DNA of 64,000 bases, taken from the IMG/VR virus record IMGVR_UViG_3300009370_000001; one strand, given 5' to 3'. This DNA is from a virus. Lineage: Duplodnaviria; Caudoviricetes. The first letter of the stretch is position 1. Each line of letters opens with the position of its first letter. Below the pieces are notes generated by a model. It made no database searches. It was not told the origin of the DNA and saw only the letters and a program-made list of their open reading frames with translations. Below, in pieces: positions 1-46,985 of the stretch. A program made the translations under genes and the position numbers.

Positions 1-498
1 TTAGATAGATCTGTAGATTTTTATAAAATTTTAAGCAAAGACTTTAATGATAAGTTTATAAAAGAATTTACGGAAACAACCGAAAAACCAATTTTCATTT
101 CAACGGGCCTTAGCTCGATAGAAAATATTCGTTCGCTTACAGAACAGATCACTCCGGAAAATAATGCAAGAATTTCTCTGATACACACTCAGTTGAGCCA
201 TGATATTTCTGACGTTAATTTAAACTCTATTCTTAAATTAAGAGATTTAACTGGCAATTCAATTTCTTTTGGCAATCATTGCGAAGACTCTCGTGTGTGC
301 TTTATGTCCCTTCCTTATAATCCACATTCAATTTTTGTATATGTGAAGGGCAATGAAAATTTAGAATATCCGGATAATGAACACGCTCTTAAACTTAATG
401 ATTTTGGAATATTTTGTGAAGATATGAAAAAACTCATGAATGCAATTGGAGACGGAGATAAAAAAGAAATGACTAACCAAATAAGAGGACAAAAATGA
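1..498 (+). CDS. NeuB-like (N-acetylneuraminate synthase family) protein, 5'-truncated by window edge, degenerate motifs
   Basis: Frame 1 is open from base 1 (LDRSVDFYK...KPIFISTGLSS...LIHT...FGNH...PDNEHAL). These match the NeuB motifs KPxxxSTG, LLH, GYSDH and PDH. The ORF track starts it artificially at 193. Confidence 0.65.
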   Translation, partial: LDRSVDFYKILSKDFNDKFIKEFTETTEKPIFISTGLSSIENIRSLTEQITPENNARISLIHTQLSHDISDVNLNSILKLRDLTGNSISFGNHCEDSRVCFMSLPYNPHSIFVYVKGNENLEYPDNEHALKLNDFGIFCEDMKKLMNAIGDGDKKEMTNQIRGQK

Positions 499-1151
499 AT
501 AAAGACAAAAAAGCAATCGTTGTGGCGGGCTCAAGAGGCATCGGGAAAGCAATTGCCGATGGAATTCGAGAACTTGGATACGATGTAGAAGCGCTATCCC
601 GCACTGCTTTAGATACATCAAATTTAAAAAACGTTAAAAATTTCCTTGACAAAGGGCCAGAAACTGATATACTAGTATTAAATACCGGAGGTCCGCCCGC
701 TAAAGATTTTTTTGATATAACGGAGGAAGACTTCAACAAATATTATAATCAGTTATTTTTAAGTTTCTGTCTTTTGCTACAGAAGGTAAAAATTAGGGAT
801 AATGGGTTTGTGTTTTTGGTATCTTCGTATAACATAAAAGAACCAAATCCAAAATTGATATTATCAAATTCTTATAGAATAGCTTTTACTAGTGTTCTAA
901 AATCCGTTTCAAAATTATTTGCAGCGAGAGGGATTAATTGTATAAATATAGCCCCCGGACCAATTAAAACAGATAGGCTTTATGCCTTGGTTGAAGACAT
1001 CAACGTATTAGAAGAAAAGCTGCCACTTAAACGAGCGGCCGAACCTCACGAGATAGGGGACTTTGTTAAATCCATTGTCGAAAACAATATTAAGTATTTA
1101 AATGGTGTAACAATTAATTTTGACGGTGGACACTCAAACTATATTTTATAG
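495..1151 (+). CDS. Short-chain dehydrogenase/reductase (SDR family)
   Basis: Rossmann motif VVAGSRGIGKAIA, plus LVLNTGGP, NIAPGPIKT and C-terminal DGG. Confidence 0.85.
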   Translation: MNKDKKAIVVAGSRGIGKAIADGIRELGYDVEALSRTALDTSNLKNVKNFLDKGPETDILVLNTGGPPAKDFFDITEEDFNKYYNQLFLSFCLLLQKVKIRDNGFVFLVSSYNIKEPNPKLILSNSYRIAFTSVLKSVSKLFAARGINCINIAPGPIKTDRLYALVEDINVLEEKLPLKRAAEPHEIGDFVKSIVENNIKYLNGVTINFDGGHSNYIL

Positions 1152-1175
1152 TATTAATATTAGCGATCAATAAAG

Positions 1176-2000
1176 ATGAAAAAAACAAAAATAATTGCGG
1201 AAATAGGTATTAATCATAATGGCGATATTGATTTGGCAAAAAGACTAATTGATGCTGCCGTTGTAGCCGGCTGCGATTATGCAAAATTTCAAAAAAGAAC
1301 ACCCGATATTTGTGTACCAGATCATCAAAAGTCCAAGCTTAGAAAAACGCCTTGGGGCGAAATTCCATATATCGATTATAAAAAAAAGATAGAGTTTGAA
1401 AAAGATGAATATGATGAATTGTTTGATTATGTAAAAGGAAAACCAATAGAAATATTTGCATCTGTTTGGGACAAGCCGTCTGTTGACTTTATGAAAACGT
1501 ATGGAGGCCCTATGAAAATAGGCTCTGCAATGATAACAGATACAGAACTGTGTTCGTATGCTAGAAAAAATACGGACTTGTTAATAATATCGACAGGAAT
1601 GAGCACTGAATCCGAAATTGAAAAATGTGTCGATGCTTGCAGCCCAGATGTGATAATGCATACAAATTCTACATATCCCAGTCCCGTTTCAGAACTAAAT
1701 TTAAATTATATTAATTGGTTATTAGAGAAATGGAATTGTGATATTGGATATAGTGGACATGAATATGGTTTAGTGACAACCTACGCAGCCGTAGTAATGG
1801 GGTGCAATTGGATCGAAAGGCACCTGACTTTAGATAGAACCATGTGGGGATCTGATCATTCTGCATCAGTTGAACCTCATGGCTTTATTAAATTAGTAAA
1901 AGGAATAAGAGACATTGAAAGATCAATGGGTCCCCCAGCCTCGCAAAGAGTTTGTTTGGGAAGCGAGCTTTCAAAAAGAAACAGCTTGAGGAAAAAATGA
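1176..2000 (+). CDS. neuB: Nonulosonic acid (sialic-acid-type) synthase, NeuB family, lacking the C-terminal SAF/antifreeze-like domain
   Basis: IIAEIGINHNGD, AKFQKR, MKIGS, ISTGMS, HTNSTYP, GYSGHE, WIERHLTLD and GSDHSAS motifs; only 274 aa. Confidence 0.92.
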   Translation: MKKTKIIAEIGINHNGDIDLAKRLIDAAVVAGCDYAKFQKRTPDICVPDHQKSKLRKTPWGEIPYIDYKKKIEFEKDEYDELFDYVKGKPIEIFASVWDKPSVDFMKTYGGPMKIGSAMITDTELCSYARKNTDLLIISTGMSTESEIEKCVDACSPDVIMHTNSTYPSPVSELNLNYINWLLEKWNCDIGYSGHEYGLVTTYAAVVMGCNWIERHLTLDRTMWGSDHSASVEPHGFIKLVKGIRDIERSMGPPASQRVCLGSELSKRNSLRKK

Positions 2001-2647
2001 GCAAACTTAAAATTGAGATTGGTGGAGGGGCCCACCCACGCCCTGGATTTGAGCAGTTTGAGAGTGACGGCGGATTCAATATTATAACTGACGAAATACC
2101 ATATGAGAACAATTCTATTGATGTGGTTTATATGTCTCATATTATTGAACATATACCGTTTTATTGTGCTCCTAACGTTTTAATTAAGATACACAAGAAA
2201 TTAAAACCCGGAGGGTATCTTAGGGTGGTGTGCCCCGATTTAGAACAAATTATTGAGGCATATATAAAAAAAGATTATCTTGCTTTTCCAGCCTATAAAC
2301 ACGAGATCTTCATCGACCCCGATGGACTGCTGCCGCCCATCGAGTCCGCTAGCGGAGGAAGTCTTAGGAATAAATGGGGCGGCATTCATCCTTTGAACGT
2401 CAAATTGGGTATTGGTGGACTTTTTCTTAATCAGATTTGCTCGCAGGCGCCTAATGGCACGGGAGATTTAGATATATATTCTGGTGGACAGAAGGTTTCT
2501 AGCCAATCTCATATAAGTGCTTATGATTTTGAGATGATGCACAACTTGTTGAAATACGTTGGTTTTTCTAAAATTGATAGAACAGAAATAACTTCTTTTG
2601 ATACTTGGAATAAACCGGGACAACTAGCGGTAAATGCGCGGAAATGA
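1997..2647 (+). CDS. SAM-dependent methyltransferase-like protein
   Basis: IEIGGG...IPYENNSIDVVYMSHIIEH...LKPGGYLRVVCPD. Start moved to ATG 1997, an ATGA overlap with the neuB stop. Confidence 0.7.
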   Translation: MSKLKIEIGGGAHPRPGFEQFESDGGFNIITDEIPYENNSIDVVYMSHIIEHIPFYCAPNVLIKIHKKLKPGGYLRVVCPDLEQIIEAYIKKDYLAFPAYKHEIFIDPDGLLPPIESASGGSLRNKWGGIHPLNVKLGIGGLFLNQICSQAPNGTGDLDIYSGGQKVSSQSHISAYDFEMMHNLLKYVGFSKIDRTEITSFDTWNKPGQLAVNARK

Positions 2648-2650
2648 AAA

Positions 2651-2965
2651 ATGAAAATTTTTGTTGACATTGATGAAACTATTTGCAAGTATTTGGGTGA
2701 GCGGCATTACCCGAGTGCTATCCCCATAAAAGAAAGAATACTTAGAATCAATGAACTTTATGATGAAGGTCATGAAATTACGTATTGGACCGCAAGAGGG
2801 GCCCTGACCGGTATTGACTGGCTTGATATTACAAAAAAGCAGCTTAACGACTGGAACTGCAAGTATCATAAATTAAGCGTTGGCGAAAAGCCTGTATATG
2901 ACTTATTGATATGCGATAAAGCGATCAATAGTAATGAATATTTTAAAAAAGAAGAGGCTGAATAG
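2651..2965 (+). CDS. Small capless HAD-superfamily phosphatase
   Basis: HAD motif I FVDIDETI, motif II YWTARG, KP..D and DKA; 104 aa. Confidence 0.8.
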   Translation: MKIFVDIDETICKYLGERHYPSAIPIKERILRINELYDEGHEITYWTARGALTGIDWLDITKKQLNDWNCKYHKLSVGEKPVYDLLICDKAINSNEYFKKEEAE

Positions 2966-2969
2966 CAAA

Positions 2970-3890
2970 ATGTTAGATCTTATTGTCTTTGTAAAGTCTT
3001 CAGGAGCCAACGTTAGACTTGATAATTTGTATGACATGGTTAATTCCTTTATTGTTAAAAATAAAAATTTAAATTATAAATTTTATTTTGCTGTTGACAG
3101 CGGGATAGAGAGTTCTCTAACGAATATGTTAAAAGAAATTAATCATGAGGACAAGATTTTAGATATTGTTACCACCAATAATTCGTGGGCAATTGATTTC
3201 AACATCTTTCTTGATACATATAAGAACGCATCAAAATGGTTGTTAATCACTCATGATGACGTAGTGTTCGAAAGTGATGATTATTTCAATAGGATTACTG
3301 ATGCCGTGAAAGGATACGAAGAGCAGATTGGGTGGGTAACTTCTACTAGTGAATATTACTATAAATATGAAAGAAAAATGATCACTGATACCTTCCGTCC
3401 TGGTTTTTACAAAGATGCCGCCAATTGGGGCGCAATGTTTCAACTTCACACACGCGATTTAGATAAGCCTGATTATCCCAAAGGACCTGTAAAGATCCAT
3501 GGACCAATGTCCGCAATTATGATAACAACAATGAAATCAATGCAAAAAATTGGATTTTGTGAAGATTGGACGCGCTATACTATGCTAATTGATGAAGACT
3601 GGTCCTTGGAAGCGCTAAAGAATAATTTATGGAACGTGTGGGTGCCACATATATATCATCTACACCCTAATAGAAAAAATTTAAGAAAGGCGAATAATCG
3701 TTGGATGGAAGAAGCACACGCCGGCCTAAAGCAAAAATGGGGGTTTGATACAGGTAATCCCACAACTACAGGATGGGAACAAGGTGTCTCTATCCCTTTA
3801 GAGGATTTAAGAAAGATATATGAGAACACCAATATTCCTTGGTCTTCTTATCGAAACAGCTATGATTGGGAATATCTAGATGATGACTGA
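2970..3890 (+). CDS. Glycosyltransferase, GT-A/GT2-like
   Basis: LLITHDDVVF DxD-type motif, DEDWSL and IYHLH. The ATG at 2970 is preferred over the track start at 2934. Confidence 0.6.
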   Translation: MLDLIVFVKSSGANVRLDNLYDMVNSFIVKNKNLNYKFYFAVDSGIESSLTNMLKEINHEDKILDIVTTNNSWAIDFNIFLDTYKNASKWLLITHDDVVFESDDYFNRITDAVKGYEEQIGWVTSTSEYYYKYERKMITDTFRPGFYKDAANWGAMFQLHTRDLDKPDYPKGPVKIHGPMSAIMITTMKSMQKIGFCEDWTRYTMLIDEDWSLEALKNNLWNVWVPHIYHLHPNRKNLRKANNRWMEEAHAGLKQKWGFDTGNPTTTGWEQGVSIPLEDLRKIYENTNIPWSSYRNSYDWEYLDDD

Positions 3891-4467
3891 TTTTTGGAAA
3901 AACATTTGGGATACTAAAGGTGATAGCGCCAGCACGGACCTGCTTTTCCTAGATGGCTATGAACACTTAAATATTGAATTTAATAGCCAAGACCTTTGTG
4001 AGAAGATTGCGCACCTAGGCGAATTTGAATATGGAGAAAAAATCTTAGAGGTAGGCTGTGGCTGTGGATTTTTGGCTCGCGAATTCCAGATCCATTATGC
4101 ATACACAGGTGTAGACTATTCAGAATCAATTATTAATAAACACAAACAACTGTTCCCGACTCACTGTGTAGAGGTGGCGAATTCGGACAGGTTGCCTTTC
4201 GAAGATAATTCCTTCGATAGAGTTTTTTGCTTCGGACTTTTTCAATACCTGCCAAATGAAGAGCATGCAGCTAAAACAATAAATGAAATGCAACGGGTGT
4301 CACGGAATACAGTATTTCTAGGAGATCTTAAGGACTCCACCACTCGTCAAGAACACTTTGTTTTTCCAAAAGAGAAATTAGATGCCCAAGGCTTTAAAAT
4401 GTCGGATTGCCTCTATGACGCGTCAGACGTCGAAAGGTATAACGCAGTTTACGGAGGAAATAGATGA
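3880..4467 (+). CDS. Class I SAM-dependent methyltransferase
   Basis: ILEVGCGCG, GVDYS, LPFEDNSFDRV and FQYL motifs. Confidence 0.88.
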   Translation: MMTDFWKNIWDTKGDSASTDLLFLDGYEHLNIEFNSQDLCEKIAHLGEFEYGEKILEVGCGCGFLAREFQIHYAYTGVDYSESIINKHKQLFPTHCVEVANSDRLPFEDNSFDRVFCFGLFQYLPNEEHAAKTINEMQRVSRNTVFLGDLKDSTTRQEHFVFPKEKLDAQGFKMSDCLYDASDVERYNAVYGGNR

Positions 4468-5027
4468 TTTGGAATGAAATTTTGTGTTTAGGAGACTCCA
4501 TCACATATGGGGCCCGCGACCGATATGGTCGCTCTTATCCTGCAGAATTAGGCAAAATTCTCTTTGAAGAAACTGGAGAATTTTATTATTGCCATAATTA
4601 TAGTCAATGCGGAGACACTAGTTCAGATCTTCTAAGAAAGGCGTGGAACGCTACCAAAGGACACAAAGAAGCGAAGTTGGCGATCATTATGATTGGAACC
4701 AACGATACTCAAAGTGGCATACCTCCGGAAATTTATCGCGACAATCTCAGACAGATTGTTTCAATCACTAAGATTCATGGTAAGATACCTATTGTTGCCA
4801 CTCTTCCGCAGTTGGGATTTACACCTTTATATTTAAAAAATTGTGATTATATTGATTTGTATAATAAAGTAATTTTAGAGCTATCGAAATCAATGGGCTT
4901 TGAAGTATGTGATATGAGTGACACAGAGAAATATTATATTGATAACGTACATTACACACATGAGGGCTATAATTTGCTAGCCCAAAAATTTGCAGATAAA
5001 ATTTTAAGTTTACAAACAAGGAGATAG
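4464..5027 (+). CDS. SGNH/GDSL hydrolase (esterase or O-acyltransferase-like)
   Basis: Block I CLGDSITYG, block III GTND, block V DNVHY. Confidence 0.9.
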   Translation: MIWNEILCLGDSITYGARDRYGRSYPAELGKILFEETGEFYYCHNYSQCGDTSSDLLRKAWNATKGHKEAKLAIIMIGTNDTQSGIPPEIYRDNLRQIVSITKIHGKIPIVATLPQLGFTPLYLKNCDYIDLYNKVILELSKSMGFEVCDMSDTEKYYIDNVHYTHEGYNLLAQKFADKILSLQTRR

Positions 5028-5028
5028 A

Positions 5029-5856
5029 ATGGGTACTGGATATAGTGTAGGAGTAATTGGCGGAGGCTTTGTGGGTTCGGCCGTCGCCTTTGGATTTGGG
5101 AGTAGTAACTCGTATGATTTTGAAGTCAAGGTATATGACTTAGATCCCAACAAGAGCACACATTCATTTGAAGAAACGGTTACGCAATCAGACTTTATTT
5201 TTATGTGTCTCCCGACACCTTCGAGAGAAGACATGTCAATTGACCTTTCATACATAGAAAAGAGCATGGAACAAGTAAGCAAGCTGGTTGATCCGTTTGA
5301 ACAAACAGTGGTTATTAAGTCCACTGTCATCCCTGGCACCTGTCGTAGGCTATCGAAAAAATATGGTCTTAACATCGTATCCAATCCTGAATTCTTGACC
5401 GAGAGACGGGCAAAATGGGACTTTATTAACGCTGCTCAAGTTGTAATCGGAAGCGATGAAAAGGATGCCGGCTCCAAAGTAAAGAGCCTTTATGAAAAAA
5501 GATTTTCGTCTATGAAATATTTGGTAACTGACAGCACCACTGCCGAATTTGTTAAGTACATGTTAAACTGTTTCTTTTCGGTTAAGTTAAGTTTTATGAA
5601 TGAAATGTATCAAGTGGGACAGTCTTTTGGAGTAGATTGGGACGATGCGGTCACTGGATTAGTATCTGATAGTCGCGTCGGTGATTCACACGTCACCGTT
5701 CCTGGCCCAGACGGCAAGTTTGGCTTTGGTGGCCATTGCTTCCCCAAAGATATTAATGCCATGATTAGATTTGCTGAGCGATTAGGGGTCGATACCAAGG
5801 TGTTGAAAGCAGCGTGGGACAAGAATTTAGATATTCGTGAGGAAAACTTGCGATGA
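5029..5856 (+). CDS. UDP-glucose/GDP-mannose 6-dehydrogenase family protein (short form)
   Basis: IGGGFVG, CLPTP, IKSTVIPGT, SNPEFL, catalytic FGGHCFPKD; lacks the C-terminal UDP-binding domain. Confidence 0.9.
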   Translation: MGTGYSVGVIGGGFVGSAVAFGFGSSNSYDFEVKVYDLDPNKSTHSFEETVTQSDFIFMCLPTPSREDMSIDLSYIEKSMEQVSKLVDPFEQTVVIKSTVIPGTCRRLSKKYGLNIVSNPEFLTERRAKWDFINAAQVVIGSDEKDAGSKVKSLYEKRFSSMKYLVTDSTTAEFVKYMLNCFFSVKLSFMNEMYQVGQSFGVDWDDAVTGLVSDSRVGDSHVTVPGPDGKFGFGGHCFPKDINAMIRFAERLGVDTKVLKAAWDKNLDIREENLR

Positions 5857-6800
5857 GAGTTTTAGTAACCGGTGCAAAAGGAGTTGTAGGCTCTAAATTG
5901 AGTGAAACTTTGACGTTAAAAGGCCATAGTGTTTTTGGTGTTGATTTGTTTCACGCTGAAGAACTCTATGGACACGGACTAGGAAAGGTAAAGAATGACA
6001 ATTATTTTCGTTGTGATATCGGAGAATACAGGCAGATAAAAGATGTCATCGAATATGTTCAACCTGAGATTGTATTTAATTGTGCTGCTGAATTTGGGCG
6101 CTGGAATGGCGAACACTTCTATGAACAAGTATGGAAAAGCAACGCCATTGGTTTGAAGAATATTATTAGGCTACAAGAGCAACACGGATTTAAACTTATA
6201 CACTGTTCGTCATCCGAAGTGTATGGCGATTATAAAGATGTGATGTATGAAGATGTATTAGAAAAAATACCGATTAATCAAATGAATGATTACGCAATTT
6301 CGAAGAAAGTTAATGAAATGCAAATTAAAAACTCCCAGGTTATGTATGATACTCAAACTGTACTTATTCGTATTTTTAACACATATGGTCCTGGCGAATG
6401 GTATCATCCTTTTAGAAGTGTAAATTGTCTTTTTACGTACAATCTTTTACACAACAGGCCCATTACGGTTTTCAAGGGGCATACGCGAACGAGTACCTAT
6501 ATCTATGATTGTACTCGAACCATTTCAAACATTATTGATAACTTTAAGAATGGAGAAGTGTACAACATTGCTAGCCAAAGTCACCATACTATCGAAGAAT
6601 TAGTAGAGATGATATTAAAAGCCACTGGCGCAGATCCAGGACTTGTTACTTATAAAGAACACTTAGAAATTTTGACCACAAAAGATAAATTTGTAGATGC
6701 CAAAAAGGCTCGCTCGGATCTGGATCATCAAGATACAGTATCATTAGAGAAAGGCGTCCAGAAGACCGTTGAGTGGATGAAAGAATATTATAGATTATGA
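5853..6800 (+). CDS. NAD-dependent epimerase/dehydratase
   Basis: VLVTGAKGVVG, SSSEVYG, YAISK (YxxxK) and RIFNTYGPG. Confidence 0.9.
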   Translation: MRVLVTGAKGVVGSKLSETLTLKGHSVFGVDLFHAEELYGHGLGKVKNDNYFRCDIGEYRQIKDVIEYVQPEIVFNCAAEFGRWNGEHFYEQVWKSNAIGLKNIIRLQEQHGFKLIHCSSSEVYGDYKDVMYEDVLEKIPINQMNDYAISKKVNEMQIKNSQVMYDTQTVLIRIFNTYGPGEWYHPFRSVNCLFTYNLLHNRPITVFKGHTRTSTYIYDCTRTISNIIDNFKNGEVYNIASQSHHTIEELVEMILKATGADPGLVTYKEHLEILTTKDKFVDAKKARSDLDHQDTVSLEKGVQKTVEWMKEYYRL

Positions 6801-7870
6801 AAAAAATAGTTCACATTGTAGGAACGCGTCCAAATTATGTTAAAGCAGCACCAGTAATTAATGCTATTAATTTTGGAACCCAAACGATCATCAACACAGG
6901 GCAACATTATGATAAAAGCTTATCGGCGGATATTATAAAGTCTCTAAATATGCGCCCTCCTGATATAAATCTAAATATCCCGAAAGGTTTAAATGTGTTC
7001 GATAGAATCTGCCATTTGCTGACAGATATTGCGCAACAACTGGCGGAAATAAAACCTGATATTGTAATATTATATGGAGATGTGGACTCAACATTGGCGG
7101 GAGCGCTCGCAGCTACGCGCTTACTCATACCTACCGCCCATGTTGAAGCCGGCTTACGAAGTTTTGACAATACAATGCCTGAAGAAATAAATAGAAAGAT
7201 TGTAGACAGATTAGCATCCATGCATTTTGTAACAGAAAAATCAGGAATTACCAATTTAAATCATGAAGGTTTTAGCACCAGTGTGCACTTTGTGGGAAAT
7301 ACGATGATTGATTCTTTAGTTGCTGTCATGAATAGTGATTCATATAAAAAGTCTTCTTATGAAAACGATGATAATATTTTATTGACTTGTCATCGCCCCT
7401 TCAATGTGGATACAGAAGACGCCCTACAGAATATATTAAAAATGTGTCAGTCTATTGACGAAAAGATTGTCTGGCCAGTGCATCCCCGGACTGCACATAA
7501 AATGCAATCTTCTGAGAACCTATCGCAAGCTTTTAAGGATACTTCTAATTTGGAACTAATTGAGCCTCTAGATTACTGTAATTTTTTAAAAATGATGGCA
7601 ACTAGCCGCCTTGTGATTACAGATTCGGGAGGGATCCAAGAAGAAACAACATATTTAAAGATTCCCTGTTTAACGATTCGCCCCAACACCGAACGACCGA
7701 TTACGGTTGAAATTGGAAGCAACATTTTGAGTTCATTTGAAGATGTTTCTTCTTATGTGGAGATGGCTTACAAGAACGAATATAAGACTTGCACACTTCC
7801 CCCTAAATGGGATGGCGCCGCCTCTACACGTATTGCTGAAAAACTTTTAAGTTTTATGGAGAAAATATAG
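6797..7870 (+). CDS. wecB: UDP-N-acetylglucosamine 2-epimerase (WecB/NeuC family)
   Basis: GTRPN, NTGQHYD, HVEAGLRS, PEEINR, DSGGIQEE and RPNTERP motifs. Confidence 0.92.
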   Translation: MKKIVHIVGTRPNYVKAAPVINAINFGTQTIINTGQHYDKSLSADIIKSLNMRPPDINLNIPKGLNVFDRICHLLTDIAQQLAEIKPDIVILYGDVDSTLAGALAATRLLIPTAHVEAGLRSFDNTMPEEINRKIVDRLASMHFVTEKSGITNLNHEGFSTSVHFVGNTMIDSLVAVMNSDSYKKSSYENDDNILLTCHRPFNVDTEDALQNILKMCQSIDEKIVWPVHPRTAHKMQSSENLSQAFKDTSNLELIEPLDYCNFLKMMATSRLVITDSGGIQEETTYLKIPCLTIRPNTERPITVEIGSNILSSFEDVSSYVEMAYKNEYKTCTLPPKWDGAASTRIAEKLLSFMEKI

Positions 7871-7871
7871 A

Positions 7872-8699
7872 ATGAGCGATAGAAGACATATTTCATTTGT
7901 AGGCATTAAAAGAAGTGGAAATCATGCAGTACAAAACTGGATTTTACATCAGATCCCAGAACCTATTTCAGTGATCAATAATCACCAATCTGATGCCGCA
8001 AAGCGAATTACTCACCCTGCAGATTTTGATGCACCATCACTGCACACGGGCGCCATGGAAAACGAATCGGCAATGTACACGTATGAAAATCTAAGCCTTC
8101 AAGGAACAGGCCATGGAACTCCAATGCATATTGATGACTTTAAAAAACTACCTCCCTATAATTATTTGGCAAATATATTATTGTTGCGCGATCCGTTTAA
8201 CAACTTGGCTAGTTTATACCAACACGCGCTGCGACGTCCCGGGATGGAGCCCCCTCATATAAAGAACTTTATTATGTTGTGGAAAAGCTATGCGCACGAG
8301 TTTACAAATAATACCAATTTTTTGACACCCCTCGACACCGCCCTGAAGCCTGGAAAAGTGTGTATCTCTTATAATGAATGGTTTAAAAGCAAGCCATATA
8401 GACGTGGTATATCTCAACAATTAGGATTGTCATTCAATGATAATGGGCTACAATTCGTTAATGGATTTGGAAATGGAAGCAGTTTTGATGGTGGGCAGCT
8501 ACAAGGAAACGCCCAGACAATGAACGTTCTTAATCGATGGCGTACCCTCGAAGATCCCCGAGACTCCAAAACGTTTCCTACATATCCATTTCGGGTCTTG
8601 TGGCCAGATGCGCTTAAAATATTAGCTCAAGAACGAGACCTAATGTGGTATGTTCAGATGATATTTCCAGAAATTTTTGCAGAAGTAATAAGACAATAA
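7872..8699 (+). CDS. Sulfotransferase-family protein
   Basis: 5'-PAPS-binding-like GIKRSGNHA and 3'-phosphate-binding-like LLRDPFNNLAS, plus ISYNEW. Confidence 0.6.
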   Translation: MSDRRHISFVGIKRSGNHAVQNWILHQIPEPISVINNHQSDAAKRITHPADFDAPSLHTGAMENESAMYTYENLSLQGTGHGTPMHIDDFKKLPPYNYLANILLLRDPFNNLASLYQHALRRPGMEPPHIKNFIMLWKSYAHEFTNNTNFLTPLDTALKPGKVCISYNEWFKSKPYRRGISQQLGLSFNDNGLQFVNGFGNGSSFDGGQLQGNAQTMNVLNRWRTLEDPRDSKTFPTYPFRVLWPDALKILAQERDLMWYVQMIFPEIFAEVIRQ

Positions 8700-8718
8700 C
8701 AATTATAGGATTTTAAAA

Positions 8719-9099
8719 ATGAAAAACAAAGAAAACACAATGACAACTCTTCTACCAATGACCCATGTAGATAAAGGATGGGGCTGGGAACGCTGGATTG
8801 TTAATTGTGAAGAATACTGTGGAAAATTATTATTCTTTAACAAAGGAAAACGCTGTTCTTGGCACTTTCATAAATTAAAGGATGAAGTATTTTATTTACA
8901 ATCAGGCAAAATGATGATATACTATTCAGATGAAGATGATATTTCTATGGCCAAACAACAAATTTTAAAGGCAGGCGAGAACTTTCATGTATATCGCGGC
9001 CTGCGACACCAAATGGTAGCTTTGGAGGATTCTGAGCTATTCGAATTTTCAACCCAACATTTTGACAGCGATAGCCATAGAGTATTGAAGGGCGACTAA
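8719..9099 (+). CDS. Cupin-domain protein (sugar isomerase/mannose-6-phosphate isomerase-like)
   Basis: VDKGWGWE, CSWHFHKLKDEVFY and GLRHQM cupin motifs; the start may be the second Met. Confidence 0.8.
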   Translation: MKNKENTMTTLLPMTHVDKGWGWERWIVNCEEYCGKLLFFNKGKRCSWHFHKLKDEVFYLQSGKMMIYYSDEDDISMAKQQILKAGENFHVYRGLRHQMVALEDSELFEFSTQHFDSDSHRVLKGD

Positions 9100-9135
9100 T
9101 GGATATTTATTTAAACTCAGGAGTATATTTTAATA

Positions 9136-10065
9136 ATGACTAAAAAAATCTTAGTAACCGGCGGCAGTGGAATGGTAGGCGCCGCATTACAATCTATTTT
9201 ACCAGATGCAATTTATATTTCATCTAGAGAGTTTGATTTACGCAACCCTCTTGATGCTGAAGCCATGTTTGCCATTCATAAGCCGGATTGGGTTATTCAT
9301 TTAGCTGCGCGAGTCGGAGGAGTCAAGGCTAATTCCGAATATGTGGGAGAGTTTTTCTTGGACAATGTACTCATAAACACTAATGTTTTAGAATATTCTC
9401 GCCGCCACAATGTAGAGAAAGTAGTCTCGTTATTGAGCACTTGTGTATATCCTGACAAAGCCACTTACCCCTTGACAGAAGATCAGTTTCACAATGGACC
9501 ACCCCATCTTTCTAATTATGGCTATGCGCATGCCAAGCGCATGATAGAGGTGCAGTCCAGAGCGTACAGAGAACAATATGGTTGTAATTTTATAACTGCA
9601 ATTCCCAATAATCTATTTGGAGAAAACGATAATTACGATCTCGAAGACTCACATGTGATGCCGGCAATTATGCATAAAATGCTATTGGCCAAACGAAATA
9701 AACAAAATATGTTATTATGGGGGGATGGCAGTCCCTTACGCGAATTTACTTATTCGGTTGACTTGGCTAAGATTTTATTATTGTTGTTAGAAAAGTATGA
9801 CGAACCCGCGCCAATTAATGTTGGCAACACGGGTGAACACTCGATTAAAGAAGTAGTAGAGTTGATTGCCAACTTTATGGACTTTGAAGGAGATATCCAG
9901 TGGGACACATCTAAACCTGCAGGCCAATATCGCAAACCATCGGATAATTCTAAGTTAATAGAATTAGGATGGGCGGCTACAGACTATACCGATTTTGAAG
10001 AAGCGTTAGAAAAATCATGTAAGTGGTTTACAGATACATATCCAAATTTAAGAGGTGCGAAATGA
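9136..10065 (+). CDS. fcl: GDP-L-fucose synthase
   Basis: LVTGGSGMVG, HLAARVGG, LSTCVYP, YGYAHAK, PNNLFG, SHV and WGDGSPLREF motifs. Confidence 0.95.
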   Translation: MTKKILVTGGSGMVGAALQSILPDAIYISSREFDLRNPLDAEAMFAIHKPDWVIHLAARVGGVKANSEYVGEFFLDNVLINTNVLEYSRRHNVEKVVSLLSTCVYPDKATYPLTEDQFHNGPPHLSNYGYAHAKRMIEVQSRAYREQYGCNFITAIPNNLFGENDNYDLEDSHVMPAIMHKMLLAKRNKQNMLLWGDGSPLREFTYSVDLAKILLLLLEKYDEPAPINVGNTGEHSIKEVVELIANFMDFEGDIQWDTSKPAGQYRKPSDNSKLIELGWAATDYTDFEEALEKSCKWFTDTYPNLRGAK

Positions 10066-11033
10066 AGAAAACAGCCTTTATAACAGGCGTCACGGGTCAA
10101 GATGGCTCATACCTTGCCGAGCTATTATTAGACAAGGGTTACCGAGTAGTTGGACTTAAGAGAAGAACCTCTTTGATTTGTACTGAACGAATTAATCAGG
10201 TTTTTGATAATCCTAATTTTCATTTGGAATATTATAGTCTTCACGATCCTGGGGTACTTTATCGCTTGGTTGACAAATATGAGCCCGACGAAATTTATAA
10301 CCTTGCCGCCCAATCACACGTTCATGTATCTTTTGATGTGCCCGAAGAAACAGTGGACACCATTGCAATGGGCACCTTGCGAATTTTGGAGACAATTCGA
10401 AATGCATGCCCCCACGTTCGCTTGTATCAGGCTTCTTCATCTGAAATGTTTGGAGATAACCCCGAACACCCGCAGAGTGAATCGACGCGACTGATGCCGG
10501 CTTCTCCTTATGCGTGTGCTAAAGTTTTTGCACACCACCTTATAAGAAACTATCGAGAATCATATGGGATTCATGCTTCTAGCGGGATTTTGTTTAATCA
10601 TGAATCACCTCGACGTGGCGAAACATTCGTAACACGGAAGATTACTTTGGCTGCAGCCCGTATTCGAGCTTGTCGCCAACAGAAACTGTATCTCGGGAAT
10701 CTAGATGCTAAGCGCGACTGGGGCTTTGCAGGTGATTATGTAGAGGCTATGTGGCTGATGCTCCAGCAAGACAAGCCCGATGATTATGTTATTGCCACTG
10801 GCGAAACTCATACTGTTAGGGAGTTTTTAGAGGTTGTATTTGAGCAAGCCGGCTTAGACGTAAACCAATACGTCGAAATCGATCCTCGCCTATTACGCCC
10901 TCACGAAGTGCCACTATTGTTGGGAGATTCTTCCAAGGCTCGTAGAGTACTGAAGTGGGAACCAAAGGTAGATTTTGTAGGATTGGCCAAAATGATGTTT
11001 GAGCATGATTTTGAAAAAGTAGCTTATTTATGA
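10062..11033 (+). CDS. gmd: GDP-mannose 4,6-dehydratase
   Basis: AFITGVTGQDGSYLAE, YNLAAQSHV, YQASSSEMFG, SPYACAK, FNHESPRRGETFVTRK and LGNLDAKRDWG; ATG 10062 overlaps the fcl stop. Confidence 0.97.
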   Translation: MKKTAFITGVTGQDGSYLAELLLDKGYRVVGLKRRTSLICTERINQVFDNPNFHLEYYSLHDPGVLYRLVDKYEPDEIYNLAAQSHVHVSFDVPEETVDTIAMGTLRILETIRNACPHVRLYQASSSEMFGDNPEHPQSESTRLMPASPYACAKVFAHHLIRNYRESYGIHASSGILFNHESPRRGETFVTRKITLAAARIRACRQQKLYLGNLDAKRDWGFAGDYVEAMWLMLQQDKPDDYVIATGETHTVREFLEVVFEQAGLDVNQYVEIDPRLLRPHEVPLLLGDSSKARRVLKWEPKVDFVGLAKMMFEHDFEKVAYL

Positions 11034-11881
11034 TCCTCGTAACTGGACATAAAGGGTATATTGGTAATAAATTATTTGACAAACTTAACACATTAGGTTA
11101 TGATGTATGTGGAATTGATTTACACGCTGGAAACCCAGCAGAAAACGGAGACATCAGAAGAGACCTATTCTCTTACGGCACATCTTGGTATAATCCCCCT
11201 CCCGATGTAATATTCCACTTGGCTGCACAACCCAGCGTACAATGGTGCGTTGACAACCCTTCTGAAGCCCTCTCTCACAACGTGTTAGGCACTTCTAGGG
11301 TGTTGGAATTTGCCAAGCAGGTCAACTGTCGGCGAGTAATTTTTGCTAGCTCAGCGGCCATTTATGGGAACAATGGTTCACCCGATAGTCCTTATGGAAT
11401 GCACAAACTTATGTCCGAATATGAATGTAAACTTTATTCAGAATTATACGATATAGACACTGTCGCCCTGCGCTATTATAATGTTTATTCTGCAGATCAA
11501 CCATATGGCGGATCTTATTCTACTGTAATATCTGCTTGGATGGAGATGATTCGCAATAATCGTCCATTGAGAATTGACGGTGACGGTTCGCAAACAAGAG
11601 ACTTTGTTCACGTTGACGATATTGTTGATGCTAATATATTTTGTATGAATTATGAAAAGAAGTTTTGTGGTCGCCACTATGATGTGGGGACAGGTCACGA
11701 AACGTCTCTAAACGATTTAAAAGAAAAGATAGACACACTATTAAGTGTGCGCTGGGAACACAAACCAGCCAGAATTGGAGATATAGCCAATTCAATTGCC
11801 GATACTGGACCTTTAGAAGAATTAGGATGGACATCCAAAATTAATATAACTGAAGGGTTACAGGATTGTTTTAAGCCATAA
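11030..11881 (+). CDS. NAD-dependent epimerase/dehydratase (UDP-glucose 4-epimerase-like)
   Basis: LVTGHKGYIG, HLAAQ, FASSAAIYG, YGMHK, LRYYNVY and GDGSQTRDFVHV. Confidence 0.9.
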   Translation: MILVTGHKGYIGNKLFDKLNTLGYDVCGIDLHAGNPAENGDIRRDLFSYGTSWYNPPPDVIFHLAAQPSVQWCVDNPSEALSHNVLGTSRVLEFAKQVNCRRVIFASSAAIYGNNGSPDSPYGMHKLMSEYECKLYSELYDIDTVALRYYNVYSADQPYGGSYSTVISAWMEMIRNNRPLRIDGDGSQTRDFVHVDDIVDANIFCMNYEKKFCGRHYDVGTGHETSLNDLKEKIDTLLSVRWEHKPARIGDIANSIADTGPLEELGWTSKINITEGLQDCFKP

Positions 11882-12369: not shown

Positions 12370-12706
12370 AATAATTTTGTCAGCCACGCTGATTTTATCA
12401 ATTTTTATAAATATAGGTTTGATTGCATATGCCCGGGCAGTTGTGATTCGAATTTTATCTGTCTCCGAAGAATTAAATGATTTGCAAACAATGATTGGAT
12501 CTTTTACGACCCATCTGCAAACAGTGTATGAACTTGATTCTTTTTATGGAGACGAGACACTAAGAGGGTTATTAGAGCACGCCATTTCTCTCAATGAACA
12601 AATGGATACTTTTGATTACATTATCTCGTTAACAGAAGCAGATACCCCATCAACAGAAGAAGGATTAGATGACGACACCACCCAAGAAGAAGAGAGCCCG
12701 ACGTAA
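12356..12706 (+). CDS. Membrane-anchored hypothetical protein
   Basis: N-terminal hydrophobic helix followed by a helical, acidic region. Confidence 0.65.
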   Translation: MSRLEIILSATLILSIFINIGLIAYARAVVIRILSVSEELNDLQTMIGSFTTHLQTVYELDSFYGDETLRGLLEHAISLNEQMDTFDYIISLTEADTPSTEEGLDDDTTQEEESPT

Positions 12707-13370
12707 AAATCATTATTTTACCTCGGATCATGAGGAGGCAATAATTCGATATGCAAAATCTACTTGCCAACGCGAGCGCACAGAATTATATGTACAATAT
12801 ATTCAGCCGGCCTTTAATGAAATGGTTGACAAGATTGTTTTTACATATAAATTTACTAACTTGCCAAATTGTGATTCATTGCGAGATGAGTGCAAAATTT
12901 GGTTAATGACCATTTTAGATAAATACGACCCGAGCAAAGGCTCTAAAGCCTTCTCGTATTTTTCCGTAATTACTAAAAATTGGTTTATTCACAAAGTTAA
13001 ACGCCAACAAAAACGCAACAAACGTGAAGTGGATTACGATAATATTTCAAAAGCATATGAAGAAGAATTTCTTTCAACAAATGACTCTTATATCACCGAG
13101 CGTGAAGAAAATGAATTTTGGCAATCCTTCTATAAAGAATTGCAATCGTGGGACGCGTCCCAGATGAAAGAAAACGATTTAAAAGTTTATCAAGCGATTA
13201 ATATCCTTTTTGAATCAAAAGAAGAGATTGATATTTTTAACAAGAAAGCTATTTATTTATACTTACGAGAGATCACCGGGCTGAACACCAAGCAGATTGT
13301 GAATTCTCTTAAAAAGTTTAGAAAAAAATACTATAACTTTAAAGACGACTGGGAAAACGGAGCCTTATGA
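12669..13370 (+). CDS. Phage sigma-factor-like protein (T4 gp55-like late sigma)
   Basis: Region-2-like RDECKIWLMTILDKYDPSKGSKAFSYFSVITKNWF resembles gp55 FDPxKSxNxFAYFT; helical C-terminus. Confidence 0.7.
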   Translation: MTTPPKKKRARRKNHYFTSDHEEAIIRYAKSTCQRERTELYVQYIQPAFNEMVDKIVFTYKFTNLPNCDSLRDECKIWLMTILDKYDPSKGSKAFSYFSVITKNWFIHKVKRQQKRNKREVDYDNISKAYEEEFLSTNDSYITEREENEFWQSFYKELQSWDASQMKENDLKVYQAINILFESKEEIDIFNKKAIYLYLREITGLNTKQIVNSLKKFRKKYYNFKDDWENGAL

Positions 13371-13669
13371 AAAATCAAGATTTAGATACTTTGATAAACG
13401 AAGCGTTAGGTAACATTCGAGATGATCGAAAATCGGCCAAAGAATTTTTAAATGAGATTGCTACTCAGATTGCCAAGGATCCCGAACAAAACAAGTATCT
13501 AAGTCCAGTTGCCGCAAAACACGTTGAAACAATGCAGCGCTCCAATGAACAGCTTGTGAAGATTATTGGGTTGAGACAGAAAACTCATACACAGCTAGAT
13601 ATTCTCTCCGACAAAGACAAAGACAGTATTTTTGATATGTTGCAGGGAGATATCGAAGATGCCGTTTAA
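13367..13669 (+). CDS. Hypothetical protein (100 aa, helical)
   Basis: Intact ORF with ATGA coupling to the sigma gene; no recognisable motif. Confidence 0.7.
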   Translation: MKNQDLDTLINEALGNIRDDRKSAKEFLNEIATQIAKDPEQNKYLSPVAAKHVETMQRSNEQLVKIIGLRQKTHTQLDILSDKDKDSIFDMLQGDIEDAV

Positions 13670-14834
13670 TAGCACAAATGCTTCCTTTGCTCACGAAGCT
13701 CTGGCGGCTTCGCAACAAGCTGTACGACAAGCCGTTGCCACGAGTACTGACCCGCAAACTTTAACTATGACTGGCGTTGTGATTTCGCAACCTCTTCCTT
13801 TGAGCAATGAGGATGTGAGAAATTTTGTAGGGGATCTTCCCGCAGGAGCAGCTGCAGCCACTCCAAGTAATAACATTATAGGAAGGTTCTTTTTTAAAGT
13901 ACGCTTGTTGTCAACGGGAGCTTTCTCCCCTCACGAATATTTGACCAATCCGTGCGAGATGACAACAGCCACTGATACTACTTTCGATTGTATCGCGGAT
14001 TTGATTGCCTTACATACTACGGCTATTTCTGTAGGCGGCTATAATGGAACTAGGCCAAAAGTTGGCGATCATGTAGAAATAGAATTACACAAACTTACCA
14101 AAGGACGAAGTTTTTGGTACAATATTCAAACAGCAACCTTTAAATCTATTCTCGATGGTTCTGTGCAAAGTAGTCCCGCTGCACGCGAGCTTTCTACTGA
14201 ATGCGCAAATTTAGCTACAATGTTCGAACACCAAGATATGTCCTTACTAGGTAGCGGCACCGGCACGGGAACAACCATGGATCCGAATACTGGTGTAACT
14301 ACTACACACACACCCGATACAGGTGTTTATCTTCCAACCAATACAGCAATTACAAATGGCGGACTCCCCGATCACAACTTGATCGGAATTGCTACTGCTG
14401 GACACAGAACACAGCCGCGTCTATTGAAAGAAATTGTAGAAGACTGGAATGAGTTAGCTAGAGCTTTTAATGCCCACTTCGAATCTGAAGGATGGAAGTT
14501 GGGAGCCTGGGGAGATCGTACTTTTGATAGACAGGTAGAGCTTAAGCAGAAAGAGTTGAACGGTACCGGCAACCCCGCCGCCCGCCCGGGCTCATCTGAT
14601 CATGGCTGGGGAGTTGCGGTAGATATGCATTATTATGACGCGAACGGAAATAGACACTCCAAAGACCAGGGCATGAACTGGGATGGAAGAGCATTCTTGT
14701 GGTTGAAGGAAAATGCTGGCACCTATATGTGGATGCACCCTTCTTGGGCATGGCAAAATGGCAGCAAGCCAGAACAATGGCACTGGGAATCTACTAAGAA
14801 AGATCGATTAATTCGCAGAAATACTGTCTCTTGA
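13659..14834 (+). CDS. Baseplate-associated protein: putative OB-fold N-terminus plus C-terminal M15 (VanY-like) zinc peptidase
   Basis: C-terminal RTFDRQ, SSDHGWGVAVD (SxHxxGxAxD) and EQWHWE (ExWH). N-terminal RPKVGDHVEI resembles the gp5 OB-fold motif PxVGxxV. Confidence 0.7.
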   Translation: MPFNSTNASFAHEALAASQQAVRQAVATSTDPQTLTMTGVVISQPLPLSNEDVRNFVGDLPAGAAAATPSNNIIGRFFFKVRLLSTGAFSPHEYLTNPCEMTTATDTTFDCIADLIALHTTAISVGGYNGTRPKVGDHVEIELHKLTKGRSFWYNIQTATFKSILDGSVQSSPAARELSTECANLATMFEHQDMSLLGSGTGTGTTMDPNTGVTTTHTPDTGVYLPTNTAITNGGLPDHNLIGIATAGHRTQPRLLKEIVEDWNELARAFNAHFESEGWKLGAWGDRTFDRQVELKQKELNGTGNPAARPGSSDHGWGVAVDMHYYDANGNRHSKDQGMNWDGRAFLWLKENAGTYMWMHPSWAWQNGSKPEQWHWESTKKDRLIRRNTVS

Positions 14835-46967: not shown

Positions 46968-46985
46968 TTACTCACGAGAACCAAT

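Follow-up and report, generated by a model that had tools for sequence, protein, structure and literature searches.

A 21.5-kb sugar island in a complete marine T4-like phage genome predicted to build a decorated, nonulosonate-containing glycan

The DNA studied here, hereafter the window, is a stretch of 64,000 nucleotides (bases 52192-116191) of the IMG/VR virus record IMGVR_UViG_3300009370_000001, a 203,204-bp genome with direct terminal repeats. Its first part belongs to a sugar island of 21.5 kb (genome 42537-64072), in which 26 genes lie on one strand. Taking our results as a whole, the best explanation is that the island makes activated sugars and joins them into a decorated glycan on virion proteins, and we put the probability of this reading at about 0.5. 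The presence of the island and the family identities of its enzymes are much more secure and are stated with high confidence.

The source is a complete uncultured marine T4-like tailed phage of about 203 kb. The CheckV completeness of the record is 100%, and a 119-bp terminal repeat was verified in the genome. Judged by the gp6-like protein, its closest cultured relatives are Microcystis phage Mel-JY01 and Flavobacterium phage immuto (about 30% identity), and a megablast search of the 11.9-kb sugar region of the window against 50,697 phage records gave no match. The island starts 9.7 kb upstream of the window, which holds its 3' two-thirds; there, 16 open reading frames (ORFs), all on the + strand, fill nucleotides 1-11881 throughout with sugar-pathway enzymes. 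The largest gap between island genes is 36 nt and 18 junctions overlap. Genes for a PIN-PhoH protein and a PD-(D/E)XK nuclease lie upstream of the sugar genes, while a gp55-like late sigma factor, gp25-like and gp6-like baseplate wedge proteins, and two giant proteins are encoded downstream. An earlier note, made from the letters of the window, had proposed a phage-encoded glycan factory adjoining the virion genes. This proposal is supported by the complete terminally repeated genome, by syntenic viral contigs and by the baseplate genes downstream, and scans of the window proteins with Pfam and NCBIfam hidden Markov models (HMMs), using the curated NCBIfam cut-offs, confirmed almost all enzymes on its list. 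Its HAD phosphatase, GT2 and sulfotransferase-like calls gave no match in these scans and were supported by motif conservation, ESM Atlas and fold search, respectively. The enzymes that it placed at 1-11881 are there, but the cluster is not confined to that part of the window, and a search of the flanks for neuA and further glycosyltransferases (GTs), which the note had recommended, found both upstream.

An assembly artefact, in which bacterial sugar genes were joined onto a phage contig, would agree with the low GC content of the island (38.5%, compared with 43.6% genome-wide; rank 5 of 91 among the lowest 21.5-kb windows). However, the island sits within a terminally redundant complete genome with phage genes on both sides, and prokaryote genomes matched only at 6 distant GT29 loci. 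A chimeric assembly is ruled out by independent viral contigs from other samples (L004, L005, and L011-L013), in which the genes follow one another in this order and have the same flanking genes, and we regard the probability of an artefact as negligible. Thus, the co-assembled bacterial contig that the earlier note had named as the finding that would overturn its proposal was not what we found.

One branch of the island is predicted to make a nonulosonate. The earlier note had seen two NeuB-family enzymes in the window, and both paralogues were confirmed by PF03102. It had also stated that no CMP-nonulosonate synthetase was visible there, which is literally correct, but such a gene ends 246 bp upstream of the window. 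By its sequence relationships, the PF02348 product of this gene is a CMP-sialic-acid-type synthetase, closer to NeuA/CMAS than to KdsB. Its nearest solved relatives are PpNeuA, the CMP-Kdn (ketodeoxynononic acid) synthetase of Prymnesium parvum (2.1e-30), and then mouse CMAS (2.4e-29), compared with 5.4e-14 for NeuA of N. meningitidis and 4.3e-8 or weaker for KdsB. In PpNeuA, Arg196 gates Kdn specificity, and the R196L exchange switches the enzyme to N-acetylneuraminic acid (Neu5Ac) (PMC12934254). Arg181 of the phage enzyme stands opposite this residue, at the end of a gapless stretch, VENGAFY(13 residues)R, common to both proteins; the gate-keeper position is Leu in mouse CMAS and Phe in the Vibrio (V. 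cholerae) enzyme. The Arg is kept in a 58%-identical homologue from the viral locus L006. Among 37 related cytidylyltransferases, the column of the gate-keeper Arg was too heterogeneous for a general rule.

The second synthase paralogue, NeuB2, ends after the TIM barrel and thus lacks the C-terminal SAF (antifreeze-like) domain with R314. In NmNeuB, the SAF domain supplies a substrate-contacting Arg, and SAF-less NeuBs are known from environmental bacteria (PMC8208679). The best PDB match of NeuB2, 6ncs, is likewise SAF-less. In the alignment to NmNeuB (2wqp), the equivalents of E25, K53, Q55, H215, E234, and H236 are kept, with E9, K37, Q39, 'SGH', and 'ERH' on the phage side. The SAF-less form (272-287 aa) is conserved in 12 viral loci. 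The small HAD protein carries DxDxT, TARG, K, and DxxxD (motifs I-IV), which are invariant in 10 viral homologues. We compared 80 viral loci centred on GT29-like genes and collected by tblastn. In this set, the HAD gene co-occurs with NeuB2 (5/14 loci with NeuB2 vs 4/66 without it, p = 0.007), and a DUF7796 gene was found in 11 of the 14 NeuB2 loci and in none of the other 66 (p = 3.5e-11), suggesting that DUF7796 probably belongs to the nonulosonate branch. No DegT-type aminotransferase was found in the genome, nor was a NeuC-type hydrolysing epimerase, the sole 2-epimerase being of the WecB type (84.1 bits with the NeuC model, cut-off 235.9).

The gate-keeper Arg, the lack of an aminotransferase, a 2-epimerase of WecB rather than NeuC type, the SAF-less NeuB2, and the adjacent HAD together point to a Kdn-type sugar rather than to Neu5Ac, legionaminic acid (Leg), or pseudaminic acid (Pse), a call that we make at about even odds. 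In this route, host mannose 6-phosphate and phosphoenolpyruvate would give Kdn-9-phosphate, then Kdn and CMP-Kdn, which the GT29-like enzyme would transfer. Several observations weigh against it. The call hinges on one gate-keeper residue, which is Leu in the L008 homologue, and a Kdn-preferring fish CMAS also has Leu at this position (PMC12934254). NeuB2 scores under both curated NCBIfam cut-offs (TIGR03569 204.5 bits, cut-off 399.65), and it has Met at the position of NmNeuB E134, which is Glu in PseI/SpsE and Asp in 6ncs. In addition, NeuB paralogue 1 and its SDR partner are left without a role. This paralogue gives weak PDB matches to PseI and NeuB and has a true orthologue only in L006 (41% identity), where the neighbouring SDR is 66% identical to the one in the window. 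Alternatively, the nine-carbon sugar may be other than Kdn: it could be Neu5Ac, made from N-acetylmannosamine (ManNAc) supplied via WecB and a hydrolase or kinase, or another ulosonic acid, and the two NeuB paralogues would make two different sugars. The encoded WecB, the second divergent NeuB with its own SDR, the best NCBIfam score of NeuB2, which is to the NeuB/NnaB model, and the nearly equal match of the synthetase to mouse CMAS, a Neu5Ac enzyme, all fit this alternative. It is opposed by the Arg at the Kdn gate-keeper position, by the absence of a NeuC-type hydrolysing epimerase, an aminotransferase, and the SAF domain with the substrate-contacting Arg of NmNeuB (PMC8208679), and by the finding of WecB in 0 of the 80 related loci and of NeuB2 in 14. 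We therefore consider it a serious contender, though somewhat the less probable of the two.

The transferase of this branch is likely the GT29-like protein. Its role in moving a CMP-activated nonulosonate is suggested by gene context, since its gene overlaps or abuts that of the CMP-sialic-acid-type synthetase. The protein matched PF00777 with 45 bits (cut-off 23) over profile positions 54-130, and a profile of 22 family members found ST6Gal1 (5.8e-11), ST3Gal1 (3.3e-9), and ST8SiaIII by sequence, with values from 5.8e-11 to 2e-6; CstII of GT42 was matched more weakly. Sialylmotif L is present, with 'KRVAIVGPSPHL..G..IDSYDIVCRVN' aligned to motif L of ST6Gal1/ST3Gal1 in the CMP-donor region. 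The profile alignment to ST6Gal1 extends into the 'EPNTG...' region, and H206 and Q211 are nearly invariant among the 22 members. The AlphaFold2 (AF2) model had a mean predicted local distance difference test score (pLDDT) of 93.1, and its top Foldseek matches were ST8SiaIII (1.8e-8), ST6Gal1, and ST3Gal1. In VIA, Z was 14.8 to ST6Gal1 (root-mean-square deviation, rmsd, 3.2 over 200 residues), 14.4 to ST3Gal1, and 12.8 to GT42 CstII, while unrelated folds reached about 4 at most. The predicted structure thus has the GT-A variant-2 sialyltransferase fold. The protein has no hydrophobic segment and lacks the type II membrane anchor and the conserved disulfide of the animal enzymes, both of which are also lacking in bacterial GT29-like proteins (PMC5811610). 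The phage protein resembles GT29 enzymes of the animal Golgi and of bacteria (Petit et al. 2018, PMC5811610) in the sialylmotif L region, possibly in the S region, and in fold, and the bacterial forms in being anchor-free; it differs from them in having 248 aa and in being phage-carried, and neither phages nor viruses are mentioned in PMC5811610.

The second and third branches would provide fucose and xylose. The gmd and fcl genes had been proposed before; Gmd is solid (451 bits over its full length, cut-off 415) and Fcl is probable. The Fcl-like gene overlaps gmd, and NF047922 was by far the best model for its product, aligned at 2-301 to model positions 2-304 of 308. No NTP_transferase gene was found in the genome. 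Host GDP-mannose would be converted to GDP-L-fucose via Gmd and the Fcl-like enzyme. The score of the latter, 252.3 bits against a cut-off of 500, tells against this assignment, and the protein could be another GDP-4-keto-6-deoxymannose reductase or epimerase. The extended SDR, formerly listed as one of two further epimerases, is predicted to be most like UDP-xylose synthase (UDP-glucuronic acid (UDP-GlcA) decarboxylase, EC 4.1.1.35), with a phmmer match of 8.4e-87 (294.8 bits) to Mth373 (8w3u/9ar1) and of about 1e-20 to human UXS1. Mth373, from an archaeon, is a UDP-xylose synthase, and its crystals contained UDP-xylose when the enzyme had been incubated with UDP-GlcA (PMC12820599). The other listed epimerase, at the end of the island, stood as GalE/TviC-like, with 114 bits for GalE and 92 bits for TviC, both under cut-off. 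The nucleotide-sugar dehydrogenase was recognised correctly as to family (TIGR03026 189.9 bits, cut-off 189.8), but it is not the complete three-domain form: only the NAD-binding and central domains are present, and PF03720, the C-terminal UDP-binding domain, was found nowhere in the genome. The same short form (265-287 aa, 31-76% identity) occurs in 7 viral loci (L004, L027, L041, L042, L045, L057, and L074). Given the absent UDP-binding domain, the xylose branch may need a host enzyme, which is a further point against our reading.

A possible user of these sugars is encoded in the part of the island upstream of the window. A profile of 24 homologues of the 47481-48359 gene product matched the A075L structures of chlorovirus PBCV-1 (8q8i/8avq/8asa) with 4.5e-22 over positions 43-287 of 290, and 18 of the 24 members matched PF24785 and 10 matched PF03016. 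At the sequence level, the gene product is a homologue of GT114 A075L over the whole GT-B protein. A075L is a GT114 beta-xylosyltransferase that places Xyl on Fuc of the PBCV-1 capsid N-glycan (PMC11571054). Its donor, UDP-Xyl, and its acceptor, fucose, are both predicted island products. Host UDP-glucose would thus be converted to UDP-GlcA and UDP-xylose, and the latter would be used by the A075L-like enzyme, possibly on fucose as in the chlorovirus. The protein of gene 45755-46420 belongs to a domain family of 5427 representatives, whose sole PDB match was domain 1 of A064R (E 0.0094), a weak lead for a second candidate link to PBCV-1. The GT2 call of the earlier note had no Pfam match, but in the ESM Atlas the protein resembled viral GT2 clusters in its features (0.98) and GT2 clusters in structure (TM 0.65-0.73); the sole Pfam GT2 of the genome also lies in the island. 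In total, the island may encode up to eight GT domains, of which five (GT4, GT4+GT2, GT29-like, and GT114-like) are supported by homology or fold, and the GT-A-like and A064R-D1-like proteins are candidates, the former from ESM Atlas features and the latter weak. The WecB-type epimerase named before was borne out (287.4 bits with TIGR00236, cut-off 210.15) and is predicted to yield UDP-ManNAc.

The oligosaccharide would then be methylated, sulfated with host 3'-phosphoadenosine-5'-phosphosulfate (PAPS), and acylated or de-acylated. For these steps, the island encodes two to four methyltransferase-like proteins, one SGNH enzyme, and one sulfotransferase-fold protein. The last had no Pfam, NCBIfam, or PDB sequence match, and its family profile gave only noise against PDB sequences. 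However, its AF2 model (pLDDT 83.6, predicted template modelling score 0.86) matched sulfotransferase-family structures in all listed Foldseek entries, to rank 49, and the best 50 entries in VIA were all sulfotransferases (Z 13.2-10.5; best 4gox, rmsd 3.7 over 211 residues). The modelled protein thus has a PAPS-type sulfotransferase fold. An invariant R14-x-G16-x-H18 loop of the family lies at the position of the 5'-phosphosulfate-binding (5'-PSB) loop and may be its functional equivalent. Homologues of the protein occur in cyanobacteria. No adenosine-5'-phosphosulfate kinase was found in the phage, and therefore PAPS must be host-supplied.

Four products have no assigned role in the proposed pathway, namely those of 46417-47484 and 48359-49015, the DUF7796 protein, and the cupin, and no clear consumer of UDP-ManNAc appears in it; both facts weigh against the pathway as drawn. 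The protein of 46417-47484, the DUF7796 protein, and the GT-A-like protein showed no relation to A3/A4 profiles in hhalign. The cupin is 77-80% identical in L004, L011, and L012 and scored 19.7 bits, under cut-off, with the WbuC model. A motif-based guess that it was a type II phosphomannose isomerase was dropped after a PF01050 search without match.

Across the 80 viral loci, a NeuA-like gene was found in 51 (within 10 kb), Gmd in 48, GT4 in 32, and NeuB2 in 14, while WecB and the sulfotransferase were exclusive to the present genome. The order PD-(D/E)XK - GT4 - GT4GT2 - ... - DUF7796 - SDR - GT29 - NeuA - NeuB - ... - cupin - late sigma is shared with L004/L005/L011/L013, and in L011/L012 the late sigma factor (55-60% identical) is positioned alike after the sugar genes. 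On this comparison, the island is a modular cassette that changes fast but keeps one site, with the nuclease gene on one side and the late sigma factor gene on the other. A profile scan found the GT29-like family on 209 IMG/VR contigs, where a scan with a single sequence had found nothing; with the same pattern method, 185,579 prokaryote genomes yielded 6 loci. One of the six prokaryote loci, L089 (QCNI01000013.1), is a 43-kb contig of the single-cell assembly of Prochlorococcus sp. AG-424-P16 and may be DNA of an infecting cyanophage. In the 50,697 deposited phage records, close NeuB2, GT29-like, and A075L-like genes were found only in two uncultured marine viruses, and tblastn with three GT29-like proteins and the A075L-like protein gave one weak match only, LR756508.1. 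In this uncultured 484-kb phage, a GT29-like stretch is followed directly by a 50%-identical SAF-less NeuB (322018-323584). Going by this arrangement, the GT29-NeuB linkage also exists in a megaphage. In the other record, marine virus AG-345-L05 (MH319754.1), the NeuB is 42% identical.

As the acceptor of the glycan, we favour a virion (phage structural) protein over the host envelope, with a probability just short of even. The glycan would be assembled in the cytoplasm and, as chloroviruses and mycobacteriophages do, the phage would attach it to one of its structural proteins. The virion is favoured because the enzymes are soluble, because A075L works on a capsid glycan, because the GT29-like family is essentially viral, and because the island has no initiating transferase, flippase, polymerase, or exporter. 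In a hydrophobicity scan of all 26 island products, no 19-mer exceeded a Kyte-Doolittle value of 1.52, and all are thus predicted to be soluble and without a membrane helix. The undecaprenyl-linked intermediates of host lipopolysaccharide (LPS) and capsule pathways are substrates of soluble GTs as well. A host target is thus compatible with an island that encodes no membrane proteins, and this point counts against the virion. The abundance of Ser/Thr in virion proteins, on which the earlier note had drawn, is a weak argument: the enrichment is mild (15-22% vs a genome mean of 12.8%) and there are no Ser/Thr tracts, which likewise does little for a virion target.

The main competitor is remodelling of the host envelope, in which the island would re-decorate the LPS O-antigen or core, capsule, S-layer, or flagellin glycan using the lipid carrier, flippase, and ligase of the host, and would thereby block superinfection, keep progeny off lysed cells, or serve mimicry. 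O-antigen and capsule loci contain the same enzyme families, the 'LPS' cluster of P-SSM2 and its classical reading set a precedent (PMC1079782), and the bacteria with GT29-like genes include marine proteobacteria that carry ulosonic acids in their LPS core (PMC5811610). Expression signals also fit this explanation. The genome has five perfect (12/12) TTGACA-N16-18-TATAAT sites, all on the + strand (41708, 48250, 105332 (window 53141), 158785, and 179841), and none has an additional upstream TTGACA box. The first lies 41 nt before the nuclease gene heading the island and the second lies inside it. Generic promoter and terminator scans were at background level, only the perfect sites being informative. 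Intergenic regions of the + strand show an enrichment of about 7-fold for a second motif, (A)CTATTTA(T/A), which is present in 13 of 70 such regions (1.3 expected). It precedes many genes in the structural half of the genome by 20-60 nt, with sites at window 48068, 48098, and 54531 and genome 125717, 129563, 132957, 139517, 142537, 144327, 176068, and 183419, but with no copy between genome 27294 and 65440. The T4 late promoter TATAAATA, with 13 copies on one strand and 16 on the other, was not enriched (expected numbers about 9 and 7). From its distribution, (A)CTATTTA(T/A) is a candidate late promoter of the lineage. If so, the island is an early or middle unit. These signals suggest that the island is probably not co-transcribed with the virion genes, which speaks against a virion target, while a perfect sigma-70-type promoter at its head and the lack of the candidate late motif agree with the early expression expected of envelope remodelling. 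However, a phosphoglycosyl transferase, flippase, polymerase, ligase, or exporter was not found among the 26 island products, to which that scan was limited; the phage looks strictly lytic and T4-like, although no search for an integrase was made; the best characterised homologue of one GT acts on a viral capsid glycan; and the GT29-like family is overwhelmingly viral. Host-envelope remodelling is thus given a smaller, though considerable, chance.

We know of no DNA glycosylation system that resembles the island in size and content, with a sialic-type sugar, sulfation, and up to eight GT domains. DNA hypermodification, in which the sugars would be placed on modified genome bases and allow evasion of restriction, was another option of the earlier note. 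T-even phages glucosylate hydroxymethylcytosine, phage GTs hypermodify DNA with diverse glycans (works cited in PMC12619734), and the GT4 protein gives a weak 'GT4-conflict' Pfam match. The option is weakened by the absence of any PF00303 (thymidylate-synthase/dCMP-hydroxymethylase family) gene in the complete genome and is very improbable. A target other than virion proteins, host envelope, or DNA is unlikely.

To our knowledge, phage sugar islands have been known since P-SSM2 and their function has never been demonstrated. PBCV-1 encodes its own GMD/GMER. Compared with the 'LPS' clusters of the Prochlorococcus myovirus P-SSM2 (Sullivan et al. 2005, PMC1079782), the present island adds a branch for synthesis, activation, and transfer of a sialic-type sugar, a UDP-xylose branch, and a sulfotransferase. 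It is similar to the PBCV-1 machinery (PMC11571054, PMC9614988) in its virus-encoded soluble cytoplasmic GTs, one of them like A075L and a second weakly like A064R domain 1. However, the phage is tailed and has a bacterial host, PBCV-1 has neither a sialic-type branch nor a sulfotransferase, and a capsid acceptor in the phage is only proposed. The Kdn pathways of Bacteroides thetaiotaomicron and Prymnesium parvum also combine a NeuB-family synthase, a small HAD, and a CMAS-type synthetase with Arg (PMC12934254), whereas the phage synthase is SAF-less with Met at E134 and its HAD is a minimal, HMM-negative protein of 104 aa. Mycobacteriophage GTs, with methyltransferases in some clusters, are described as decorating capsid and tail-tube proteins (Freeman et al. 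2023, cited in PMC12619734); those cassettes consist of only two or three genes and draw on nucleotide sugars of the host, whereas the island encodes whole nucleotide-sugar pathways and up to eight GT domains. Flagellin O-glycosylation with pseudaminic or legionaminic acid (Maf, FlmG; PMC7591256) resembles the predicted route in the cytoplasmic transfer of a CMP-nonulosonate onto Ser/Thr before assembly, but uses other transferase families, and the phage lacks the Pse/Leg aminotransferase route. Phage sugar islands, bacterial GT29, the Kdn pathway, and GT114 have thus each been published. In a literature search of partial coverage, no paper was found on phage nonulosonate/GT29 modules or on the combination of these published elements in a tailed phage. 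The present study adds the reading of the Kdn gate-keeper, the link between UDP-xylose and A075L, the sulfotransferase fold, the conservation of a dehydrogenase without its UDP-binding domain, and the pattern of promoters.

A broader proposition, which we consider less likely than not, is that tailed phages that are abundant in the sea but uncultured cover their own particles with a glycan of Kdn, fucose, and xylose that is sulfated and methylated. They would build it in the bacterial cytoplasm with a toolkit that has otherwise been described in eukaryotes and giant viruses and comprises a GT29 sialyltransferase, a CMP-Kdn synthetase of CMAS type, and a GT114 xylosyltransferase. If it were true, virion glycan shields would be common in the ocean virome, and phages would be a major reservoir and vehicle of 'Golgi-type' glycosyltransferase families. 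A glycan on the virions would affect adsorption, grazing, aggregation, and particle decay at sea, and sialic-type glycosylation would not be limited to cells. The island links tailed phages with the capsid-glycan enzymes of chloroviruses and offers chemistry that is concrete enough to test: CMP-Kdn, GDP-fucose, UDP-xylose, sulfate, and a soluble GT29 of minimal size. For glyco-engineering, this soluble sialyltransferase of 248 aa is an attractive enzyme, as are the Kdn-type synthetase and the dehydrogenase without a UDP-binding domain. The genes of the island and the late sigma factor gene next to it are shown in Table 1.

Table 1. Genes of the sugar island and its downstream flank (SAM, S-adenosylmethionine; MTase, methyltransferase)
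Feature	Position	Strand	Evidence
GT4	genome 42537-43808	+	Pfam
GT4+GT2 fusion	genome 43808-45751	+	Pfam
A064R-D1-like candidate, Pfam-negative	genome 45755-46420	+	weak PDB match
Pfam-negative protein, without family assignment	genome 46417-47484	+	
GT114/A075L-like, Pfam-negative singly	genome 47481-48359	+	family profile
Weak methyltransferase-like protein	genome 48359-49015	+	HMM
DUF7796 protein	genome 48942-49730	+	HMM
SDR	genome 49727-50572	+	HMM
GT29-like protein, 248 aa	genome 50553-51299	+	PF00777 45 bits
CTP_transf_3 cytidylyltransferase	genome 51299-51946	+	PF02348 87.6 bits
NeuB-like paralogue 1 (3' part in window), 248 aa	window 1-498; whole gene genome 51943-52689	+	PF03102 59.3 bits, whole protein
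Classical SDR, 218 aa	window 495-1151	+	PF13561 66.9 bits
NeuB2, predicted SAF-less nonulosonate synthase, 274 aa	window 1176-2000	+	PF03102 213.7 bits
Methyltransferase-like, weak class I SAM-MTase signal	window 1997-2647	+	PF08241 25.7, PF13489 25.4 bits
Minimal cap-less HAD phosphatase-like, 104 aa	window 2651-2965	+	motifs
GT-A fold GT2-like glycosyltransferase, 318 aa	window 2934-3890	+	ESM Atlas
Class I SAM methyltransferase, 195 aa	window 3880-4467	+	PF13649 58.2, PF08241 54.7 bits
SGNH/GDSL acyl-hydrolase or acyl-transferase, 187 aa	window 4464-5027	+	PF13472 81.2 bits
Nucleotide-sugar 6-dehydrogenase, short, 275 aa	window 5029-5856	+	PF03721 + PF00984
UDP-xylose synthase-like extended SDR, 315 aa	window 5853-6800	+	phmmer
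WecB-type non-hydrolysing UDP-GlcNAc 2-epimerase, 357 aa	window 6797-7870	+	TIGR00236 287.4 bits
Sulfotransferase-fold protein, 275 aa	window 7872-8699	+	AF2 + fold search
Metal-binding cupin, 126 aa	window 8719-9099	+	PF07883 29.5 bits
Fcl/GMER-like, 309 aa	window 9136-10065	+	NF047922 252.3 bits
Gmd, 323 aa from ATG overlapping the Fcl stop	window 10062-11033	+	TIGR01472 451 bits
GalE/TviC-like nucleotide-sugar 4-epimerase, 283 aa, last island gene	window 11030-11881	+	PF01370 162.9 bits
gp55-like late sigma factor, downstream flank	window 12669-13370	+	phrog_234 E 1.5e-4

Several other genes around the island were recorded. About 1.8 kb upstream of it, genome 39390-40727 codes for a PhoH protein with an N-terminal PIN domain (PF13638 + PF02562). 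The two giant ORFs lie in the baseplate/fibre region: that at window 15853-22551 (2232 aa) was matched by nothing in family scans, and that at window 26292-37475 (3727 aa) contains a ConA-like lectin/glucanase domain (PF13385, residues 1619-1734). A single ORF of 1035 aa at window 55692-58799 gave PHROG matches to SbcD-like (1-376) and SbcC-like (301-1034) proteins and codes for a fused SbcCD nuclease. The tail and baseplate genes are headed by a gene for a 400-aa protein (window 13632-14834) with a C-terminal VanY-type D-Ala-D-Ala carboxypeptidase domain, which is probably a virion-borne cell-wall hydrolase.

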